This document shows, piece after piece, positions 2,912 through 54,863 of a stretch of 64,000 bases of DNA (the first letter of the stretch is position 1; each line of letters starts with the position of its first letter). The translations under genes and the position numbers were made by a program. The DNA comes from an uncultured virus (IMG/VR IMGVR_UViG_3300034023_001061) (lineage: Duplodnaviria; Heunggongvirae; Uroviricota; Caudoviricetes), in IMG/VR virus record IMGVR_UViG_3300034023_001061; one strand, written 5' to 3'. The notes beneath the pieces were generated by a model. The model searched no databases, had not been told where the DNA came from, and was given only the letters and a program-made list of their open reading frames with translations.

Positions 2912-3139
2912 TCACGCCGCGCAGCGATTGCCCTTGCGGGGGAACGACGGGCGCGGCGTCGCGGCGCACTCGCACCAGTCCGCTTGCAACCGGCGCCCGA
3001 GCGACGTGGCGGGCGTCGTGTGGTCGCAGCGGAGGTGCCCGCGCGTCCACTCGCCAGCGCCACGGAAACACTGCGGGAACACGGGGTGCGTGACGGAGGG
3101 GATTGAGACGAGGCCAGCGACGCAGTGGGTGGTGTTCAT
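2912..3139 (-). CDS. Small Cys-rich hypothetical protein
   Basis: ATG directly after a clear promoter motif copy. Confidence 0.5.
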   Translation of the reverse strand: MNTTHCVAGLVSIPSVTHPVFPQCFRGAGEWTRGHLRCDHTTPATSLGRRLQADWCECAATPRPSFPRKGNRCAA

Positions 3140-3192
3140 GGTGACCCTTCTACGTCGCCAGTTGCGGCGACCTTACGCTGCTCCGCCGATTT
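3140..3192 (-). promoter_or_regulatory. ECF-like promoter motif
   Basis: AAATCGG..GCGTAAGG-N16-CGTAGAAGGGTCACC-ATG. Confidence 0.7.
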
Positions 3193-3346: not shown

Positions 3347-3520
3347 ACCTCCCCGCCGCGAGCGACGGGGCTTCTCGTGTCGGCTTACGCCGACGCCGAA
3401 CTACTTGCAGGGGTTCCGCCTGAACTACGGGGTGGCGGTTGCCCGCCTCCTCGATACTTTCTCAAAGGGCGAACGAACACGATCGTGCTTGGCATCGGTT
3501 GGTTGGGCAACAGTTGCCCG
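3323..3520 (-). ncRNA. Putative omegaRNA of tnpB 1 (bounds approximate)
   Basis: Established position over tnpB 3' end and right end; guide would start AGGCAACCGTCCGCGC. Confidence 0.5.
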
Positions 3521-4653
3521 TTGAGACCGATGCCTCGAATGTTCGCGCACCCCACCACGTCACGCGGCGCCACCAACCCGCACTGCGGGTTCCGACACCG
3601 ATAGACCCTTCGGCACTTCTGCCGATTCACGCAAGCGGGACACGCTTGCGAACTGTACGCCTCGCAGACGCGCTCGACGCCAGCGAGTTTGTAGCCCAAC
3701 TGCGCGATGATCTTGCCGGTGCAAACCTGCGAGACTTGCTGCGCAGTGCGACGATTCATCTTCGCCGCAGCATCGTTGAACGGCTCGCCGACGAAGGCGT
3801 GCGCTCCGGGGAACGCACGCGCAACGGCGGCGGTCGCCTTGTGCGTGATGTCCTTGATCTTGCGCCTGCACTTCGCGAGCATCTTGTGCTTGCGCCGCGC
3901 GAGTTTCTTCTGTCGACGACTCCCTTGCTTGCAGCGCGACGAGCGCGAATCGATGCTCGCCAGTTGCTTGTTCCGGTACTGGACGATGGCCTTCGCCTCG
4001 CGACCCGATACGACGATCGCGGTCTTGCCGTCGGTCGCCGCGATGAGCGAGTTCACGCCGAGGTCGCAACCGATCACGGTGCCAGACTCGATCACTGACT
4101 CGACGGGCAACGCGCAGACGATGCGAACGACGCAGAAGCCGAGCGTCACCTCCATCAACCGCCCCGACAACGCGAACGGCAGACGAATGCGGAGCGTTTG
4201 GTTGACCCCTCTCCCACTACCACCGCCGTTGTTGAGGCGCAGAAATCCATCGCGTATCAGCGCGCCTTGGTTCGAGTACGTGACGTCTCGGTAGCGCGGC
4301 GTTTTGCGCGGGTACTCGGCGGTCACTTCTTCGCCGCGCGCCCGCTGCGCCTTGCGCTTCGCGGTAGTCCACGCGATGTTCTCGCAGAACTGCGCCACGG
4401 TTCGCTGGACGGACTGCGCGGACATCGCGGGGAACTTGCCCTTCGCCCACGCCAACCAGCGCGAGAGCGACGGCCACTTCCACCGCAACCGTCGGATGCG
4501 GGCGTGAAGGCGTACCATCGCGTTCCACAACGCGGCGTTCGCGAGGCGAGACGCCGTGAACGTGGCCCACTGAACCGACGATCGCGGTCGCCACGCAACC
4601 TCGACAACGCGATGCGTCGTCTCCGGGGCGTTGGTGACTGCTTTCTCCTGCAC
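3385..4653 (-). CDS. tnpB: RNA-guided endonuclease TnpB
   Basis: IGCDLG, VCEAYSSQACPAC, CRNPQC, RDVVGCANI; start chosen 7 nt after a -10 box. Confidence 0.92.
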   Translation of the reverse strand: MQEKAVTNAPETTHRVVEVAWRPRSSVQWATFTASRLANAALWNAMVRLHARIRRLRWKWPSLSRWLAWAKGKFPAMSAQSVQRTVAQFCENIAWTTAKRKAQRARGEEVTAEYPRKTPRYRDVTYSNQGALIRDGFLRLNNGGGSGRGVNQTLRIRLPFALSGRLMEVTLGFCVVRIVCALPVESVIESGTVIGCDLGVNSLIAATDGKTAIVVSGREAKAIVQYRNKQLASIDSRSSRCKQGSRRQKKLARRKHKMLAKCRRKIKDITHKATAAVARAFPGAHAFVGEPFNDAAAKMNRRTAQQVSQVCTGKIIAQLGYKLAGVERVCEAYSSQACPACVNRQKCRRVYRCRNPQCGLVAPRDVVGCANIRGIGLNGQLLPNQPMPSTIVFVRPLRKYRGGGQPPPRSSGGTPASSSASA

Positions 4654-4660
4654 GGGCACC

Positions 4661-4689
4661 ACCGTACTCACGGACTCCGTACGTGTCAA
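4661..4689 (-). promoter_or_regulatory. Sigma70-like promoter of tnpB 1
   Basis: TTGACA-N17-TACGGT-N7-GTG. Confidence 0.6.
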
Positions 4690-4871
4690 GGGCGGCTCTT
4701 GCCCTCGACGGCGTTGAGGATGCGCTTCGCTTCGATCACGGAGGCGCGGCGAACCAGCGACGAAATATCGTCGCCGCACGCCGTCGCAGCGCGCTCGATC
4801 AGTGCCTTCTCCTCCGTGGTGAGGCGGAGGTCCATGCGGGCGTCGCGAGGCGTGTCGTTGTACTTGCTCAT
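4686..4871 (-). CDS. Ribbon-helix-helix protein, DUF1778-like
   Basis: RMDLRLTTEEKALIERAA...ISSLVRRAS. Confidence 0.8.
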   Translation of the reverse strand: MSKYNDTPRDARMDLRLTTEEKALIERAATACGDDISSLVRRASVIEAKRILNAVEGKSRP

Positions 4872-5839: not shown

Positions 5840-5975
5840 GGTGCTCGCTTCTACGCCCGCCGCTCGCCGCTTCTTTACATCGCCCCGTCGGTTTTCGCAA
5901 AACCGCTTCTGCGAAGGCCAGCGCAAGAAAACTTCGTGGCGGCGTAAGGTCTGCCGCGCTGGAACCGTAAGAGTG
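5840..5975. promoter_or_regulatory. Divergent pair of ECF-like promoter motifs
   Basis: Minus: TGTAAAG-N17-CGTAGAAG; plus: GCGTAAGG-N16-CGTAAGAG. Confidence 0.65.
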
Positions 5976-6006
5976 ACAGGTTCCGCAACATCAAGGGGAC
6001 ACTGCA

Positions 6007-7962: not shown

Positions 7963-8558
7963 GTCGCCTCCGCGATGCTCGGGATCGCGAGCCCCGACTG
8001 CGTGAACTGGAACACGAACCGCTGGCCGTCCGAACCGTAGCGGTTCTTCGCCACCGTCACGACGACGTTTGCGCGGTTCTCTTCGCGAGAGAGCATGAGC
8101 AGCACGTCGGCGGTGTGCTCCGGCGCGACCCACTGAGGGTACGTCAACTCCGTGAACGACGGCGCGATGATCGTCGCGGCCTTGAAGGCGGGTGCCTTCG
8201 CGACGCGCAGAACGTCATCGAAGCGGTGCGGCGGGAGGCGCGGACGATCGAGCACCACGAGGTCTTCGTCGCTCGCGAGGCAACGATCGAACGGGTCGCC
8301 ATCGGACGAGAAGCCTTCGACGCGAAGTCTCAACAAGGCTTCGTTGCTCATCCCCCCGAAGCGCCGACGCATGGTGAAGTCCGTCTCGTCGTCCGTAGCG
8401 TACGCCACCGACGCGCCGTTCTTCGCCGCGTAGCGCACCATCGCCACGAGCAGCGTCGTTCGCCCGACGCCTGGAGCGCCGATCACCACCGTCACGTTCC
8501 GCGGTCGCATCACGATATCAACCAACTTCGCGATCCCGCACTTCTTGTCGATCATCAT
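7959..8558 (-). CDS. Degenerate DnaB-like RecA-fold ATPase
   Basis: GAPGVGRTT, LVVLD, ADVLLML, VAKNRYG. Confidence 0.75.
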   Translation of the reverse strand: MMIDKKCGIAKLVDIVMRPRNVTVVIGAPGVGRTTLLVAMVRYAAKNGASVAYATDDETDFTMRRRFGGMSNEALLRLRVEGFSSDGDPFDRCLASDEDLVVLDRPRLPPHRFDDVLRVAKAPAFKAATIIAPSFTELTYPQWVAPEHTADVLLMLSREENRANVVVTVAKNRYGSDGQRFVFQFTQSGLAIPSIAEAT

Positions 8559-8676
8559 TGGAGTTCTCCTTGTGTTGCCAGCGTGGATGCTCCGCGATTC
8601 AGCGCGCAGAGGAAACGCCTTCTCGACTTGAACGAGCATCCACGCGACCTTCGGCGAGAACCGGCGTCGGGTTCAC
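8556..8676 (+). mobile_element. 121-bp non-autonomous IS200/IS605-type mini-element
   Basis: First ~63 nt align with left end of tnpB element 2; preceded by TCAT, ends in TCAC. Confidence 0.65.
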
Positions 8677-8951
8677 GCGAGGGCCGCGGTGAGTTCGGCC
8701 TTGATGCCCTTCTCGATCTGATCCTTGAGCGAACTCATCAGCAGGCCCAGTTGAAGGTTCACGCGAACCTGCGTCTGCGAGACCGTGAATGTCCCCTTGA
8801 CCGGCGCGGCGATGGCGTACGTCGTGGCGTTCTGCCACGTACCGTGGATGCCGTACTTCTTCGCGATTGCCGCGTAGGCGACGGTGACGCGGCGCTTCGC
8901 TTCGTCGAGCCCGCGGTTGTGCTCGTGCGTGATGTTGACTTCGACTGCCAT
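8673..8951 (-). CDS. Polyhydroxyalkanoic acid system (PHA_gran_rgn-like) protein
   Basis: ITHEHNRGLDEAKRRV...KYGIHGTW...LGLLMSSLKDQIE. Confidence 0.75.
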   Translation of the reverse strand: MAVEVNITHEHNRGLDEAKRRVTVAYAAIAKKYGIHGTWQNATTYAIAAPVKGTFTVSQTQVRVNLQLGLLMSSLKDQIEKGIKAELTAALA

Positions 8952-15928: not shown

Positions 15929-16233
15929 GGATAAACCTCGCAGTAGCACTTGCGAACGTGGCACATGCCGTCGAGAACGTGCGGGCAATTGCACTTGTGT
16001 TTGTCGCATCCGAGTCCGTTCCAGCCTAGCGCGGGGCAGTGATTCACCCTCCCCCACACCGCCGTGCGGTAGTCTTCGCCGATGCCGAGGGTCCACTGTC
16101 CGCCGATGGCCCGACTTGCCCACGGCCACCGCTGCGCGGCTCCCTCGCGGTCGAAACGGAACCACGCCCGCTGCCACCACGGGATCACCTCCGCCACGTC
16201 CGCAACCGGCACGCACGAGCGGTACGGCGTCAC
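15925..16233 (-). CDS. PYR-motif Trp/Cys-rich small protein
   Basis: MTPYRSC...WASRAIGGQW. Confidence 0.6.
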   Translation of the reverse strand: MTPYRSCVPVADVAEVIPWWQRAWFRFDREGAAQRWPWASRAIGGQWTLGIGEDYRTAVWGRVNHCPALGWNGLGCDKHKCNCPHVLDGMCHVRKCYCEVYP

Positions 16234-16514
16234 GGCCACGCCTCGCACTCGTGGTGACGATTCGTGCACTGGCACAACACGATTGCGTCGGGCAAGGACT
16301 CGTGCTCGCAACGATCCACGCGGTGCCAGCACGGCGGGCCGAAGGGCGAGTTGCCGCGGCACCACCGCCCGCCGACGGCGCGACGATACCAGCGGTACGC
16401 CGCCAAATCCTGCGGCGGCATGAACGGTTCCGCGACGCGGGCTAGCGCGCGGAACCACCACGGGGCACGCGACGGCGGCGTCACGGGAGCGGTGCGGTAG
16501 GGGTGGCTCACCAT
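16230..16514 (-). CDS. PYR-motif Trp/Cys-rich small protein
   Basis: MVSHPYRTA...WYRRAVGGRW. Confidence 0.65.
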   Translation of the reverse strand: MVSHPYRTAPVTPPSRAPWWFRALARVAEPFMPPQDLAAYRWYRRAVGGRWCRGNSPFGPPCWHRVDRCEHESLPDAIVLCQCTNRHHECEAWP

Positions 16515-16574
16515 CGTAGTTCTCCGAGTATTGCCAGCGTGGATGCTCCGCCGTTCACGGCGGAGAGGAATCAC
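16512..16574 (+). mobile_element. 63-bp single-hairpin IS200/IS605-type mini-element
   Basis: TCAC|CATCGTAGTTCTCC...GATG-CTCCGCCG-TTCA-CGGCGGAG-AGGAA-TCAC. Confidence 0.7.
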
Positions 16575-16840
16575 TCCTCGATCAGAACCCGGACCAGCGC
16601 GGCGAGCGCACGCAGCGCCGAGATTTGCGTAGCGCCGAACTCCGCCGCGCTGAGTCGCGGGGCCTCGACGCGGCGAGGGCCGTTCACTTCGGCGCGAGCG
16701 AGGTAAGCGTGGGCCTCCGAACGTGATGCGTTCGGCCCGAACACGCCCACCTCGACGGTGTGCAGCGGGTCGTTCCTGAGCGCCTTCTCGATCGCGAGGC
16801 GCAGCGCTTCGACCGTTGCGTCGTCGTTGTCGTCTGCCAT
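16571..16840 (-). CDS. IExALR-family paralog
   Basis: LRLAIEKALR...GATQISALRALA; promoter motif at 16841-16880. Confidence 0.6.
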   Translation of the reverse strand: MADDNDDATVEALRLAIEKALRNDPLHTVEVGVFGPNASRSEAHAYLARAEVNGPRRVEAPRLSAAEFGATQISALRALAALVRVLIEE

Positions 16841-16872: not shown

Positions 16873-17661
16873 TCACACGGCGACGCCGCGGGCCGACAAT
16901 CGCGTGCGGAGCGTACGCAGTGCGCCGGACTCGATCTGCCGCACACGCTCCTTCGTTAGCCCGTACGCATCGCCGCACTCCTCCAGGGTTTGCTCCTCGC
17001 CGACGAAACCGAAGCGCCGGTTGAGCACGTCTCGCTCGCGCGCTGTGAGCGTCGCGACGATCGACCGGGCGAAGGCGTTGTGCTCGCACGTCGCCACGAT
17101 CTGCTCGGGAGTCGGCACCTCGCGATCGTCGGTGTAGTCGCTCGGGATCGACGGCGCCACGTCGGGCCAGAGTTCTTCCGGCGTTGTGCCGAGCGCGGCG
17201 GCGACGTTAAGGGCGATGTTGCGCCACCGACCGTCGCTGCGACGCAACGGGGAGTAGCGCCCGGTTTCCAGCGAGGCGAGGAGCGATTGCGTGCAGCCGT
17301 ACGTCGCGGCGGAGAGTTTCGCGCCCGTGAGGCCAGCGGCGACGCGAGCCGCCGTGAGCGCCGAGCGCGTGGTGTCGACGGCGCGGAGGGCCGCGATTTC
17401 GTGGTTGCGCCGTTGCGTCTCGGACCAACCGAACGTCACGTCGCCGTTCGGAGCGCGCAGCGTTCGGATGGCGTCGAGTGCGTCGCCCGTCACGCCGTAC
17501 GCCGCCGCCATCGAGTCGAGGCGCTTGCGACTCGGGTGCCACGATCCGCATTCGATGTTGTAAACGGCGGACTGCGAGACGCCGAGAAGCGACGACGCGT
17601 TGCGAACGTCGATCCCCGCGGCGATGCGGGCCTTCTTGAGCGCGATGCCGAGGGGTGTCAC
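16873..17661 (-). CDS. XRE-HTH x2 + sigma70 region-4 protein
   Basis: LKKARIAAG..LGVSQSAVYNIE; LTARERDVLNRRFG..TLEECGDAYGLTKERVRQIE. Confidence 0.85.
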   Translation of the reverse strand: MTPLGIALKKARIAAGIDVRNASSLLGVSQSAVYNIECGSWHPSRKRLDSMAAAYGVTGDALDAIRTLRAPNGDVTFGWSETQRRNHEIAALRAVDTTRSALTAARVAAGLTGAKLSAATYGCTQSLLASLETGRYSPLRRSDGRWRNIALNVAAALGTTPEELWPDVAPSIPSDYTDDREVPTPEQIVATCEHNAFARSIVATLTARERDVLNRRFGFVGEEQTLEECGDAYGLTKERVRQIESGALRTLRTRLSARGVAV

Positions 17662-18467
17662 GATTGCCTCTCGTCGAGTTCGGCGTTGCTGTAGTTGCGC
17701 CAGAATCGCGTGCGCAGCGTGCGAAGAGCACGCACCTCGATTTGCCTCACTCGTTCGGGAAAACAGCCGAACTCATCGCCACACTGCGCGAACGTTTTCG
17801 GTTCCCCGGTGAACCCGAAGCGGAGGTGAATAACGCGCTGTTGCTTCAGCGGGAGCGTCAGGAGGAACAGTCGCACCGTTCGGTCGCGGTCGCGTGCCAG
17901 CGCGATATCCTCCGGCGTCGGAATCGTTTGATCGTCGGCGTGGTCGATCGGGGCCAGTGGCGCCACGTCGGGCCAGAGTTCTTCGGGTGGCACGCAGAGC
18001 GCGGCGGCGATGCTTCGTGCCACGGGGCGCCACTGCCCGTCACGGCGTCGGATCGGTGACTCGCGACCCGTCTCCAGCGCGGCAAGAAGCGACGGGGTGC
18101 ATCCGCGAGCAATCACTGCGAGTTTCGTTACCGTGAGGCCCGCGGCGACGCGAGCGGCGGTGAGTTCCGATCGGCGGGTGTCTGCGGCCCGAAGGTGCGC
18201 GAGTTCCATGTTGCGTCGATGCTCCGCACTCCACTTCGCGTGCGGTTGGGCGTTTATTACGCGCAGGGCATGGAGTGTAGCACGTTCCTCGGTTGTCACG
18301 CCGTACGCCGTCGCCATCGCGTTGAGCATCCTGCGTGTCGGGCAACGCTGGTCGAGTTCGATACCGCAGAGGCTCGACTGCGACACGCCGAGTTCCTGCG
18401 CTGCCCTGCGCACACCCATTCTCGCCGCGACGCGCGCGGCCTTGAGCGCGATGCCGAGCGGTGTCAT
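17658..18467 (-). CDS. XRE-HTH x2 + sigma70 region-4 protein (paralog)
   Basis: Same architecture; LPLKQQRVIHLRFG..ERVRQIE. Confidence 0.85.
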   Translation of the reverse strand: MTPLGIALKAARVAARMGVRRAAQELGVSQSSLCGIELDQRCPTRRMLNAMATAYGVTTEERATLHALRVINAQPHAKWSAEHRRNMELAHLRAADTRRSELTAARVAAGLTVTKLAVIARGCTPSLLAALETGRESPIRRRDGQWRPVARSIAAALCVPPEELWPDVAPLAPIDHADDQTIPTPEDIALARDRDRTVRLFLLTLPLKQQRVIHLRFGFTGEPKTFAQCGDEFGCFPERVRQIEVRALRTLRTRFWRNYSNAELDERQS

Positions 18468-25861: not shown

Positions 25862-26356
25862 TCAGCCCTTCTTCTCGATGCGCTCGATGGCCTTCTTCGC
25901 CTTCGCGAAGTCCGCGGGCTTCGGCGGCATGTACCAGTCGCGCATCCCCTTCGCGGAGAAGTGCGCCTCCGTGCGGTGCCTGAGTTCGTAGTAGAGGCGC
26001 TGGTCGAACGAGCGCAGCCCGCGCTCCTCGCAGATCGTCGCCTCGTACCGTTTCCACTCCGCGGCGAGCGCGTGCAGCCCCGCGAGTTTCGCCTGCGCCT
26101 TCGCGAGCGAAATCGCGTGGGCCTTCGCGTCCTTGATCGCAGCGCCGAGGTGCGCAGCCTCGCGGGTGGCGCACGTATCCCCCATGATGGCGCGCGTACC
26201 GTCGCTGAGTTCGACGTGCGCGTGAACCTCGTGCTGCGCGCCGCAGCGGGCGCACTCGTTCATCACGCCGCTACCGGGGATCGGGAACGCGCCCTGCGGT
26301 CCGACGGTCCAGTTGCGGGTGTCGATCACGGTGATGACGCGGGTGATGGTTCGCAT
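25862..26356 (-). CDS. Zinc-finger hypothetical protein
   Basis: CARCG...MGDTCA; promoter motif upstream. Confidence 0.7.
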   Translation of the reverse strand: MRTITRVITVIDTRNWTVGPQGAFPIPGSGVMNECARCGAQHEVHAHVELSDGTRAIMGDTCATREAAHLGAAIKDAKAHAISLAKAQAKLAGLHALAAEWKRYEATICEERGLRSFDQRLYYELRHRTEAHFSAKGMRDWYMPPKPADFAKAKKAIERIEKKG

Positions 26357-26400
26357 GGTGTCCCTTGTACGGTGCAAGTCGGGCGGACCTTACGCCGCCC
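26357..26400 (-). promoter_or_regulatory. ECF-like promoter motif
   Basis: GCGTAAGG-N16-CGTACAAGGGACACC-ATG. Confidence 0.75.
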
Positions 26401-26402
26401 GG

Positions 26403-26609
26403 TCACTTCGTCGCGAAACGCTTCTCCGCAGCGGCGAGTTCCGCGCCCGTGAGGGGCACGCACTCCGACTCGAACAAGTAGTGACCGTAGCCGAACTCGT
26501 CGCCGAGCCACACGCGACCTTGTGATCCGCGGTTGCCGGTGCGGCCAATATCGCCCGACGGAGCGTGGCGGACGAGGGTGCCGGTGGGGATGCTGGTGTT
26601 GTCGTTCAT
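26403..26609 (-). CDS. Small SH3/KOW-like beta protein
   Basis: IPTGTLVRHAPSGDIGR..RVW. Confidence 0.65.
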   Translation of the reverse strand: MNDNTSIPTGTLVRHAPSGDIGRTGNRGSQGRVWLGDEFGYGHYLFESECVPLTGAELAAAEKRFATK

Positions 26610-26665
26610 GGTGTCCCTTGTACGCCTGCCGTCGCGGCAACCTTACGCCGCACTCGCCGATTCTT
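26610..26665 (-). promoter_or_regulatory. ECF-like promoter motif
   Basis: AATCGG..GCGTAAGG-N16-CGTACAAGGGACACC-ATG. Confidence 0.75.
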
Positions 26666-26964: not shown

Positions 26965-27153
26965 TCACTTCGCCACCGCGGCTTCGTACGCGGCGCGGGC
27001 GGCGCACGCCTTCTGCCACGCGAGGCGCTCACGGTGTCGCGCGAGGCCCACCGTGCGCGAGCCAGACACTTCGGCGCGGTATGCCGCGCGGGCGGCGCTC
27101 TCGTGGGCGACGGTGGCGGTTGCGTAGGCGGCGCGGAGGGTCTCGGTGTTCAT
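26965..27153 (-). CDS. Small Ala-rich protein
   Basis: ATG after promoter motif. Confidence 0.6.
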   Translation of the reverse strand: MNTETLRAAYATATVAHESAARAAYRAEVSGSRTVGLARHRERLAWQKACAARAAYEAAVAK

Positions 27154-27293
27154 AGTGCCCCTTCTACGCCGCCAGCCCGACGAACCTTACGGCGCCACGT
27201 CGCATTCTCTCGCACCGCCTGTTTTGCGGCGCTTCGGAGAAACCACCGGGCCGACGAAAGAACTGGCGCCGCCGATGCGTAGAAGGGCTCGCC
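27154..27293. promoter_or_regulatory. Divergent promoter pair at the main strand switch
   Basis: Minus: CCGTAAGG-N16-CGTAGAAG; plus: CGAAAG-N17-CGTAGAAG. Confidence 0.7.
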
Positions 27294-34764: not shown

Positions 34765-35159
34765 AGCGCCAGCGCGTCGTAGCTGCGATCGAGAAGTCGC
34801 AGCGATATCTCGGGATCGAGTACAACCGCGCGAAGGTCCGCGTGCACGTTTCCGCGCCTATCGTGACCGCTGCGGAGTGCGTGGAAATGAGGTGGCGCGA
34901 GTGGGGCATCAAGGACGCGAGGCGCGGGCGATGGCGCGACGGCGGGCAAGTCGTCGAGTTCCTGTTCAAGACCTTCAATCGTGGCGACACGCTGCACCAC
35001 GCGGCGTTTCTCGTGGCGTGGATCAAGGGCATCAAGTGCCGCGGAGCGAACGTGCGGTTGCTCAACGCGGCGGCGCTACCGATGCACGCGCTCCGCTCGA
35101 TTTGGCGCGCGAGGCGCCTGCGGGAACAGCGGGCGAAACAATCGGCGGGGCGGGCGTAA
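34761..35159 (+). CDS. Basic hypothetical protein
   Basis: Overlap chain. Confidence 0.6.
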   Translation: MKRQRVVAAIEKSQRYLGIEYNRAKVRVHVSAPIVTAAECVEMRWREWGIKDARRGRWRDGGQVVEFLFKTFNRGDTLHHAAFLVAWIKGIKCRGANVRLLNAAALPMHALRSIWRARRLREQRAKQSAGRA

Positions 35160-35192
35160 GGTCGGCGACGCGAGAGGCGTACAAGGGGCACT
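35140..35192 (+). promoter_or_regulatory. ECF-like promoter motif
   Basis: AATCGG..GCGTAAGG-N16-CGTACAAGGGGCACT-ATG. Confidence 0.75.
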
Positions 35193-35363
35193 ATGAACGC
35201 CCGCAACACGCATCCCGATCACGCTCTCGTCGCCTGCGAGTCGCTCCCGAACAGCCAGTGGCGCATCGAGTATGGCCCGCGGTGCCTCCCGCGCCCGTGC
35301 CGCCACCCGAAGCACGGCATCAAGGGCTGCGGGTGTGGCGCTGCGACGTGCCGACCCGCCTGA
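35193..35363 (+). CDS. 56-aa Cys-rich peptide (below ORF track cutoff)
   Basis: ATG immediately after a clear promoter motif copy. Confidence 0.5.
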   Translation: MNARNTHPDHALVACESLPNSQWRIEYGPRCLPRPCRHPKHGIKGCGCGAATCRPA

Positions 35364-52903: not shown

Positions 52904-53061
52904 AGGAAATGTTCCTGGCCTTTATCGCGTTCTGCGCGATTGCTGTTACCGTCACCATCAGCATTTCGCCCAAGCCCGCGCCGTGTGACGGCCAACTCGT
53001 GACGGGCGCCATCGGCACCATCGAGTTCCGGTACTGCGTGCACCCCGTGGTGGCGCAGTGA
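52900..53061 (+). CDS. Small membrane/secreted protein
   Basis: MKEMFLAFIAFCAIAVTVTISI. Confidence 0.55.
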   Translation: MKEMFLAFIAFCAIAVTVTISISPKPAPCDGQLVTGAIGTIEFRYCVHPVVAQ

Positions 53062-53309
53062 CGCTCGCCGACGCAGTGCTCCGCTCCCTTCTCGCGCTCG
53101 ACCGACTTGCGGCGCCCGGTCCCTTCGAGCGCGGTGCAACCGTTCGCTTGATCGACCGCACCGACGTGTACGCGGTCGGCGACGTGGGCGAGGTGATCGC
53201 GTCCGATCGCGAGTACACGTCCGTCCGCATCGGCGGGTGCCAGCAGACCGTGCGAACGTCGCAACTGCGCGGGTCGCGGGCCGAAGTGATGTCGGAGGGG
53301 CTGCGGTAA
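53058..53309 (+). CDS. Small KOW/SH3-like protein; stop codon supplied by element 2
   Basis: FERGATVRL..GDVGEVI. Confidence 0.6.
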   Translation: MTLADAVLRSLLALDRLAAPGPFERGATVRLIDRTDVYAVGDVGEVIASDREYTSVRIGGCQQTVRTSQLRGSRAEVMSEGLR

Positions 53310-53480
53310 ACAATCCCCGCGCTAAAGCGCAGGGCTTTCGGTGCGTCGCTTGCGTGACGGCACCTTCGCGGCTCCACTCGCACGGACACCCCCACCAGTC
53401 TTCGGGGTGCGCGCTACGGGCTTTTCGTGGGCTGCATACGGGGGGTTTACGTGACCCTTGCGGGTCGCCACCGGAGGATC
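53286..53480 (-). ncRNA. Putative omegaRNA of tnpB 2 (bounds approximate)
   Basis: Established position; guide would start CGCAGCCCCTCCGACATC. Confidence 0.55.
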
Positions 53481-54863
53481 ACCGTTTTGCTGGGTGGTGA
53501 TCCAGTTCGCCGCGTCGAGCGCGGCCTTGCGAATGTTCTTCGCGGCGTTCACGTCCGCGTTCTCCGCGTGCCCGCACTTGCGGCACTGAAACCGCGACTG
53601 CGAGCGACGATTGTTCCGCGCCGTGTGCCCACAACACGAGCATCGCTGCGACGTGTACGCGGGATCGACGTAGACGATCGTGATCCCGTACTCGCCCGCC
53701 TTGTACTCCAGCATCTCCTGCTGGCGGCGGAACGTCCACGAGTGGATGCGACGCTTCGTCTTGCGATTGAAACGTCGGCATCGAGTACGGATGTTTGTCA
53801 GATCCTCAAGCACGAGAATCGTGCCTGCGGGCAGACTGCGGAGAAGTTGAGTCGTGAGACGATGGTCGGCATCAACGCGAAACCGAGACCACTTCCGCGA
53901 GCGCCGCTTCGCGCGGCGTTTTGCAGACTTGGTGCCTTTGCGCTGGAGAGACTTGCCAGTGTTGAAGTAGCGCCTTTCGACGGAGTGCCAGTTAGGGTCG
54001 CCGAGTTTGCGACCGTCGGAGAGAGCGAAGGGTGCGACGACGCCACGATCGCCGCCGATCACGTTCGCCGTGTCGGGGTCGAAGGTTTCGGGTGTCACGC
54101 CCGCGGGTGCGGGGCGAGAAAACGAGATGGAGATCCAGAAGCGTCCATCGCGATCCTCGCTCACACGCGCAGCGCCGAGTTTCCATCCGCTCCCCTCGCG
54201 GAAGTAGCGGCGCAGTTGCTTGTGACCGACGATGCGGCCTTCGATGCGCTTGCCGAGCGTCGTGAGCGTCACGTCCTTGCCGTTCGGTCGCACGCGCATC
54301 GTGCGAGCGTCATAGGGAATCGGCACGTTCGCGTAGAGCGGCTTCGAGACGGCGTTGCCGAGTTTGGCGAGCGATCGGAGTGCGCGGACGGCGCCGAAGG
54401 CGAGCGTCTGCACGTTGCACACGAACTGCGACGGCAAGCGCGGGAACCGCGCACGCAGCGTCGTGTAGACCGCGTGGTGGAACGTTTCGTAGTTCCTGAA
54501 CCGATGCGGGTAGGCGATATCCACCGCGTCCTGCATCGCGGCGGTGATGAGCGGCGCCACGTCGCGCATGGCACGCTTGCCGTCGTCGGTGAGCATCAGC
54601 GGGCAACGGACCGTGCGCATCATTGCGGGCGCTCGCTTGCCGCGCGGGGACACAACGGCGTCCGCCGTCGTTTCCTGCGCTGCATCGGTGAATGCGCCGT
54701 CCATCGACTGCGTATGTAGCACGCTACACGGAGCAAGTTCACGGGAACTGCTGACGTGTGACATAGACTGTCCGGCACGTCGCTTGCTCGTCTGCTCGGG
54801 CGTTTCCTCTCCGCGCTCAAGCGCGGAGTACCCACGCTTGCATCACACTGGAGAACACCAAGA
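53306..54863 (-). mobile_element. IS200/IS605-family (IS1341-like) tnpB element 2
   Basis: Right end AAAG-hairpin-TTAC; left-end hairpin CTCCGCGC-TTGA-GCGCGGAG; target TCAT. Confidence 0.85.
53322..54704 (-). CDS. tnpB: RNA-guided endonuclease TnpB (start uncertain)
   Basis: IGGDRG, LVLEDL, YTSQRCSCCG, CRKCG, NADVNAAKNI. Confidence 0.95.
   Translation of the reverse strand: MDGAFTDAAQETTADAVVSPRGKRAPAMMRTVRCPLMLTDDGKRAMRDVAPLITAAMQDAVDIAYPHRFRNYETFHHAVYTTLRARFPRLPSQFVCNVQTLAFGAVRALRSLAKLGNAVSKPLYANVPIPYDARTMRVRPNGKDVTLTTLGKRIEGRIVGHKQLRRYFREGSGWKLGAARVSEDRDGRFWISISFSRPAPAGVTPETFDPDTANVIGGDRGVVAPFALSDGRKLGDPNWHSVERRYFNTGKSLQRKGTKSAKRRAKRRSRKWSRFRVDADHRLTTQLLRSLPAGTILVLEDLTNIRTRCRRFNRKTKRRIHSWTFRRQQEMLEYKAGEYGITIVYVDPAYTSQRCSCCGHTARNNRRSQSRFQCRKCGHAENADVNAAKNIRKAALDAANWITTQQNGDPPVATRKGHVNPPYAAHEKPVARTPKTGGGVRASGAAKVPSRKRRTESPAL

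Follow-up and report, generated by a model that had tools for sequence, protein, structure and literature searches.

A 63-nt sequence between two genes of a phage-like genome is probably a non-coding miniature remnant of an IS200/IS605-like insertion sequence (IS) that carried tnpB, lodged in a former GTGA stop/start overlap. The motif to which this sequence (copy B) belongs forms the left end (LE) of TnpB elements resembling IS200/IS605, because it is carried by 51 of 80 viral tnpB loci and by a Dactylosporangium genome. The window, meaning the whole 64-kb stretch of DNA that was analysed, has a GC content of 67% and is phage-like, encoding a replication module, RecT, a methylase, a thymidine kinase, a DUF5131 protein and numerous ORFans, with genes oriented on the - strand up to ~27 kb. 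It contains three copies of the motif (A, 8556-8621; B, 16512-16574; C, 54797-54863; Table 1), and a start codon stands at the end of each. The 18-mer core is found at three sites in the window with ≤3 mismatches, compared with 0.06 expected, and a repeat finder aligned 8547-8614 with 16503-16570 (81% identity over 68 nt) and paired both, inverted, with 54799-54847.

Table 1. Positions of copy B, its parts and neighbouring genes, and of related elements in the window.
Feature	Position	Strand	Description
Upstream gene	16571..16840	-	89 aa; C-terminus ...LIEE, then stop
Downstream gene	16230..16514	-	94 aa; Cys/His-rich; ATG 16514
Copy B, mini-element	16512..16574	+	LE linker, single hairpin, AGGAA, TCAC
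Target motif (TAM) TCAC	16508..16511	+	complement GTGA, the former stop/start overlap with native GTG start (16511-16509, -)
Right-end motif (TEM) TCAC	16571..16574	+	5 nt past hairpin foot; complement gives G + TGA, the upstream-gene stop
Hairpin P2	16546..16565	+	8 bp, loop TTCA; CTCCGCCG-TTCA-CGGCGGAG
Predicted outward translation start at LE tip	16512..16525	-	GGAGAAC 16525-16519, N7, ATG 16514-16512
Copy A	8556..8676	+	complete LE with helix P1 (8556-8621), then 55 nt to a putative right boundary at TTCAC (8672-8676); 90.8 bits; TAM TCAT 8552-8555
Element 2, full-length	53306..54863	-	LE 54863-54797; tnpB 54704-53322; RE hairpin 53334-53315; end ...GTTTAC at 53306; TAM TCAT 54867-54864
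Other TnpB gene (tnpB1) and RHH gene	3385..4871	-	tnpB1 3385-4671; RHH 4686-4871, just upstream

Copies A and B are at least 4 kb away from any tnpB. Copy C lies within the 159 nt that separate a 114-aa gene from the divergent tnpB at 53322-54704, with which it forms a full-length element (element 2) whose LE and right-end (RE) hairpins are identical at 16 of 20 positions. The protein of this element, TnpB2, has OrfB_IS605 and Cas12f1-like TNB domains (PF07282, 2.4e-25; PF01385, 6.2e-06 at 26.9 bits, which is under the curated cutoff of 30.5). The TAA stop of a convergent 83-aa gene (53058-53309) falls at 53307-53309, inside the terminal bases of the right end of tnpB2. The other TnpB gene of the window, tnpB1, has a right end of the form hairpin-AGGTTCAT, and no copy of the LE motif was present at it in a search of the window with covariance model R1 (see below). 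The RHH gene before tnpB1 encodes a 61-aa TacA1/NikA-like protein, and the arrangement of the two genes resembles the arc-tnpB described in a 2026 preprint (10.64898/2026.09.24.754181).

Two further sets of repeats were observed in the window. Directly upstream of copy B, at 16873-18467, an 806-nt tandem duplication (repeats 17077-17299 / 17883-18105 and 17314-17416 / 18120-18222) yields two paralogues with an XRE-type HTH N-terminal part and a sigma-70 region 4 C-terminal part. Repeats of ~50 nt form a second family (2356-2406, 3128-3178, 26345-26395, 26598-26648 and 27142-27192, with inverted partners at 5938-5993 and 35137-35208); these read GCGTAAGG...N...CGTACAAGGGRCACYATG on the gene strand, and a start codon closes each copy. 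They may represent a phage promoter or leader family, separate from the IS ends.

Anatomy and junctions of copy B

The top (tnpB-sense) strand of copy B is the + strand of the window and is antisense to the phage genes. As originally predicted, direct reading places TCAC on both sides of the element, and the sequence resembles the left end of element 2, with arms at 16532-16570 and 54804-54842 that are 79% complementary over 39 nt. Hairpin P2, a candidate transposase-binding palindrome, is preceded directly by GATG (16542-16545) and followed directly by AGGAA. Read along the gene strand, the spacer of 56 nt is UUCCU-CUCCGCCG-UGAA-CGGCGGAG-CAUCC-ACGCUGGCAAUACUC-GGAGAAC-N7-AUG-GUG. The linker from the TAM to the structured part measures 24 nt (21 nt in copy A and 25 nt in copy C), and the distance from hairpin to TEM is 9 nt, compared with 8-9 nt at right ends. 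Neither copy A nor copy B carries an ORF, the 63 nt of copy B being homologous to non-coding IS ends, and copy B has one hairpin only, so that it lacks the pair of LE and RE palindromes that defines a palindrome-associated transposable element (PATE).

On the - strand, the upstream gene ends in GAG GAG TGA (stop 16573-16571), and the element-borne ATG (16514-16512) is in frame with GTG AGC (16511...). Deletion of 16512-16574 gives GAGGA-GTGA-GCC, in which GAG GAG TGA overlaps GTG AGC; the overlap that excision had been predicted to restore was obtained by direct computation. Deletion of element 2 (53306-54863) likewise gives CTG CGA TGA overlapping ATG AAC, and deletion of copy A gives CTC GCA TGA overlapping ATG ATC. 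The computed empty sites are thus ATGA (element 2), ATGA (A) and GTGA (B) overlaps, with the last residues of the upstream protein unchanged each time, and the open frames flanking the computed junctions extend for 106/114, 270/199 and 211/93 codons, respectively. In place, the complement of the RE motif (GTAA, GTGA and GTGA) supplies the in-frame stop and the LE tip supplies GGAGAAC; in copies A and B, an extra CAT follows the TAM, which is ATG on the gene strand. The description of copy B as a portable stop-RBS-ATG cassette holds for all three window copies, each deletion of which leaves an RTGA overlap and the same upstream C-terminus.

The added residue can be read from homologues of the downstream proteins. 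All three homologues of the 94-aa protein begin at the position of the native GTG and read MTHPYR/MTTPYR (93, 93 and 92 aa), compared with MVSHPYR here, in agreement with the one extra residue that had been foreseen. The 94-aa protein itself belongs to no Pfam or PHROG family, and its public gene call (P0121) begins at ATG 16514. For the ATPase-like protein downstream of copy A, the four closest of eight homologues are 198 aa long and start MNDRKC/MKNEKC, compared with 199 aa and MMIDKKC here, and the remaining four, which are more distant, are 192-196 aa long. At the level of protein sequence, these comparisons confirm that the solo copies A and B each add one Met, i.e. the element-borne ATG. 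The left edge of copy B retains a 3-nt ambiguity (63 or 60 nt), because P0148, the sole clear homologue of the 89-aa upstream protein (78% identity, 90 aa), ends ...IEEK, one residue beyond the upstream protein here. The edge could accordingly lie at 16515, giving 60 nt, if CAT is counted to the target, and the IEEK end fits this alternative boundary equally well.

The seamless stop/start pattern is not general beyond the phage of the window. Outside the window, a stop/start overlap site was found for one of seven family elements with both ends mapped, and in TTGAC-type elements the upstream frame enters the RE by 6 codons, with its stop in the hairpin loop. ORFs of ≥50 codons starting from the flanking NTG were present at 22/41 LEs, compared with 38% of all ATGA sites, which is a weak enrichment; LE tips resembling a Shine-Dalgarno (SD) sequence were modestly enriched (11/43 LEs, against a background of 11.6%).

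Copies A and B are unlike in architecture, and there is no sign of multiplication of the 63-nt form. The tail of copy A is not significantly similar to the right ends of tnpB1 or tnpB2 (110/500 and 324/500 shuffles, respectively, score as high or higher). The LE box of copy A also recurs within the copy as a perfect inverted repeat of 12 nt (8634-8645 vs 8581-8592; GCGTGGATGCTC / GAGCATCCACGC), and the two could pair as a long alternative stem around the LE hairpin. On either side of copy A, just beyond its edges (8455-8459 and 8679-8682), contigs of the metagenome runs X14 and X15 depart from the window sequence by two deletions of 1 nt each and by two G>C substitutions, the latter 39-40 nt from a contig end; these differences may represent a strain variant around copy A.

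The motif at the ends of TnpB elements

Close relatives of TnpB2 among public proteins share 91%, 77% and 70% identity with it. An alignment of 19 TnpBs was used to collect 80 IMG/VR loci encoding distant TnpB relatives (28-52% identity), and two covariance models of the motif were built, one from the three window copies alone (R1) and one from 16 R1 matches in the 80 loci (R2). R1 has exactly three full-length matches in the window (90.8, 88.5 and 80.8 bits, with copy B at 88.5), the next best scoring 16 bits, and it matched 36 places in the 80 TnpB loci at E≤1, nearly all shortly upstream of tnpB and on the antisense strand. R2 recovered the full-length motif in 51 of the 80 unrelated viral TnpB loci, with 52 of 54 matches upstream of and antisense to tnpB; of the two that do not conform, one adjoins another divergent tnpB-sized ORF and one is a solo copy. 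Copy B was the top match of the R2 search, at 64 bits. In nine loci, R2 matched the hairpin alone just downstream of the tnpB stop, and these matches correspond to RE hairpins, and full-length relatives possess similar subterminal hairpins at LE and RE on the same strand. The original prediction had named a motif never linked to tnpA/tnpB as the finding that would point to a plain regulatory RNA; linkage to tnpB in 51/80 loci is the opposite of this.

The LE folds into an outer helix (P1) and an inner hairpin (P2). Among 61 distinct rows, 94.3% of the cells of the two helices are paired, compared with 59.4% in shuffles, and 223 cells are changed on both sides, compared with 64 in shuffles, 223 being attained by 0/500 shuffles; slid controls reach ≤54% paired, and the alignment is model-fitted, so that these figures are somewhat flattered. 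Wobble-compatible mismatches in P2 favour the tnpB-sense strand (17 vs 7), a bias that would be expected of a transposase-bound top-strand DNA hairpin, and those in P1 (4 vs 7) are undecided. Rfam returned nothing at the gathering threshold in the window, noise only at E≤5 around copy B and nothing at E≤0.01 in nine family loci. Neither helix P1 nor the conserved loops UUCCUC and YWUCC (antisense strand) have a counterpart in Rfam or in the accessible part of a study of ISGst elements (PMC10055086). Many family LEs (L225, L238, L287, L290, L246 and others) have, adjoining helix P1 on its inward side, a purine-rich GAAAGGAGG (antisense; CCTCCTTTC on the tnpB strand); this could pair alternatively with the conserved UUCCUCC of the inner loop or stem, to which it is complementary.

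The ends of the family follow a common plan. The LE comprises a target motif TCAY, a linker, the outer helix, the hairpin and AGGAA, and the RE comprises a guide, the same hairpin and then 8-9 nt ending in a TCAY-like motif; the guides of IS608 are AAAG and GAAT, according to PMC3597680. NTGA (antisense; TCAN in sense) occurs ≤45 nt from helix P1 in 43 of 45 distinct LEs, and the 41 with enough flank divide into 32 ATGA, 7 GTGA and 2 TTGA. Right ends terminate in TTGAC in most viral loci, and also in GTCAA, TTCAT (tnpB1) and TTTAC (tnpB2). The related elements of L224 and L233 occupy different sites, and their sequences part precisely at TCAT on the left side and, on the right side, after ...TCGTTGAC (...GTTGAC).

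The closest family was found in the genome of an actinomycete, Dactylosporangium sp. (which holds locus L166), one of five bacterial genomes probed, with 17 R2 matches. Nine of the ten LEs listed for this genome have the form T/CATCRGATTCC...GGAWA-hairpin-AGGAAACGG, its REs have the form GGAAT-hairpin-AGGA(A)(T)GTCAA, and both hairpin flanks are common to LE and RE. LE-RE pairs in this genome lie ~1.3 kb, ~600 nt or ~280 nt apart. Those separated by merely ~280-600 nt (L310, L312, L314 and L316) suggest PATE-like or internally deleted elements. The tail of copy B, hairpin-AGGAA-TCAC, matches the RE tails hairpin-AGGAA-GTCAA, whereas other LEs run on as AGGAA-ACGG; copy B is therefore read as an LE linker, one hairpin and an RE tail. 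This composition fits both origins originally proposed, a scar of recombination between left- and right-end hairpins or a minimal element whose single hairpin serves both ends, and singles out neither.

Origin of copy B and alternative explanations

Searches for a transposase and for other states of the locus bear on how copy B arose. A search for Y1 TnpA (PF01797) came back empty for the 132 called ORFs of the window (64 kb out of a contig of ≥180 kb), for five viral records and for the L166 genome; with positive controls, matches were obtained in 6 of 14 genomes. No related DNA was found in scans of phages, IMG/VR, metagenomes and GTDB: megablast and blastn of the B region against phages gave no match, nor did tblastn of the 94-aa protein and TnpB2, and the IMG/VR scan used a 20-mer pattern, the sigma-like protein, the 94-aa protein and an alignment of the latter as queries. 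The 18-mer core occurred at ≥220 loci in metagenome (59 of 64 parts) and GTDB contigs, all by chance and none with hairpin and SD context together. The window stretch is present in 24 lake or freshwater metagenome runs, and no RNA runs containing it are listed. Contigs spanning copy B in four runs are identical to the window, and no excision joints at A or B occur in the contigs of these runs, which as contigs cannot reveal rare excision; one unrelated 8.5-kb skip with a 21-nt side was seen among them. No second copy of the B architecture exists in the window, the 80 viral loci or the L166 genome, where full-length matches all retain helix P1.

In the proposed history, a parent element, oriented antisense to the phage genes, would have entered directly 3' of TCAC, the complement of the GTGA overlap, presumably mobilised by a Y1 transposase in trans. 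What remains on the top strand would be the LE linker (CAT...GCGTGGATG), one subterminal hairpin and an RE-type tail of AGGAA and TCAC, most likely produced when a longer element lost, by internal deletion, the stretch between its LE and RE hairpins, which are nearly identical. The host may tolerate the remnant through ends that mimic the junction split by insertion: GTGA, the complement of the RE motif, would restore the in-frame stop of the upstream gene, and the LE tip GGAGAAC-N7-ATG would re-initiate the downstream gene one codon ahead of its native GTG, if the SD and ATG are used in vivo. Since nothing that was searched yielded another copy with the B architecture, internal deletion is preferred to present mobility.

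That copy B is instead a still-mobile minimal transposon, a 63-nt unit of one hairpin, TAM and TEM served by a transposase in trans, is an unlikely alternative. Protein-free PATE-like elements are known (PMC10055086), and in copy B every cis part is present at the spacing typical of the family. The hairpin flanks of LE and RE are also alike in the L166-genome family, yet this reading has to contend with the lack of a second copy of the same architecture, of a transposase in the ORFs and genomes searched and of joints in the contigs of four runs. In IS608-type synapsis, a TnpA dimer engages two hairpins.

A native cis-regulatory leader or intercistronic phage RNA (hairpin, box and SD) with no link to transposition is very unlikely, despite three window copies at a fixed distance ahead of a start codon with GGAGAAC, covariation of helices P1 and P2 and G.U pairs of the window copies on the mRNA strand. 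The motif flanks tnpB in the majority of the viral loci and has 17 matches in one bacterial genome, the P2 hairpin recurs at right ends, the P2 wobble pairs across the family favour the opposite strand, and the ATG is extra relative to homologues of the downstream proteins. As the origin of the motif, a leader RNA was the first reading and was dropped once R1 and R2 matched tnpB flanks; it is now largely refuted. An exapted RNA role on top of an IS origin is possible. No convincing fit to the sigma-70, sigma-54 or ECF promoter consensus was apparent by eye. It is most improbable that the 63 nt are coding, with a start at GTG 16574 overlapping the upstream TGA and a 21-residue N-terminal extension of the downstream protein: homologues of the 94-aa protein show no such extension, its public gene call begins at the later ATG, and the 63 nt share homology with IS ends that are non-coding. 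The element can be read through without a stop (ORF 16230-16574), 63 being a multiple of 3, and the RE motif recreates a GTGA overlap, but a 20-codon open frame is estimated to be not unusual at the GC content of the window.

Comparison with known elements and significance

The non-autonomous TnpB elements of the IS200/IS605 group are the nearest counterpart of the remnant and its relatives. As described in PMC10055086, the ISGst family of Geobacillus stearothermophilus has, as here, same-strand subterminal hairpins at both ends, tnpB without tnpA, a TAM of 4-5 nt next to the LE and a TEM of similar sequence that closes the RE (TTCAC in ISGst2; TTCAC, ATCAC and TTTAC here). The same source reports TAM, TEM and protein-free PATE-like derivatives for IS200/IS605 elements, together with flexible boundary spacing and capture of extra bases at alternative boundaries, which would account for the extra CAT in copies A and B. 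Unlike ISGst, the present family has an additional covarying LE outer helix P1 with the conserved UUCCUC and YWUCC loops, none of the genomes examined yielded a Y1 TnpA, and all three phage insertions lie in stop/start overlaps. PATEs, which are protein-free derivatives of IS200/IS605 ends, compare with the ~280- and ~600-nt LE-RE pairs in the L166 genome; copy B differs from them in having one hairpin for both ends, in measuring just 63 nt and in being single-copy in such form. No start-codon-targeting or single-hairpin IS605 derivative was described in the open-access literature searched.

Two other kinds of short element share features with copy B. REP elements consist of a short single hairpin with a conserved flanking tetranucleotide and have an evolutionary tie to Y1 transposases (RAYT); they are high-copy and stand mostly downstream of genes. 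Copy B is like a REP in its single short hairpin and flanking tetranucleotide, but no RAYT or Y1 gene was found here and its homology to the LE of TnpB elements is clear. The start-associated sequences of cluster K mycobacteriophages are many-copy native regulatory motifs directly upstream of start codons. The present motif is similarly conserved and directly upstream of phage start codons, but it is a transposon end and has three copies.

A wider proposal, which is tentative and rather doubtful, is that these elements represent a TnpB lineage with translationally seamless ends, in which a TCAY target, a stop-restoring RE and an LE tip bearing an outward SD (and ATG) would permit spread without polar damage. 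Under this proposal, the 63-nt form would be the smallest transposase-recognisable substrate, and the LE outer helix with its UUCCUC/YWUCC loops would be an undescribed DNA or RNA module. The locus offers a case of an RNA-guided-nuclease transposon that, in a gene-dense phage genome, splits stop/start overlaps and restores both signals with sequence of its own ends, and a decay product retaining one hairpin, TAM and TEM bears on the minimal cis needs of single-strand 'peel-and-paste' transposition. In annotated genomes, proteins next to such elements gain an N-terminal residue that is spurious or extra, and the elements themselves resemble conserved 5' leaders. Worth following up are the LE model, the additional conserved helix and the logic of the seamless junctions, and the covariance model marks LE boundaries, hence TAMs, across a TnpB-element clade absent from Rfam.
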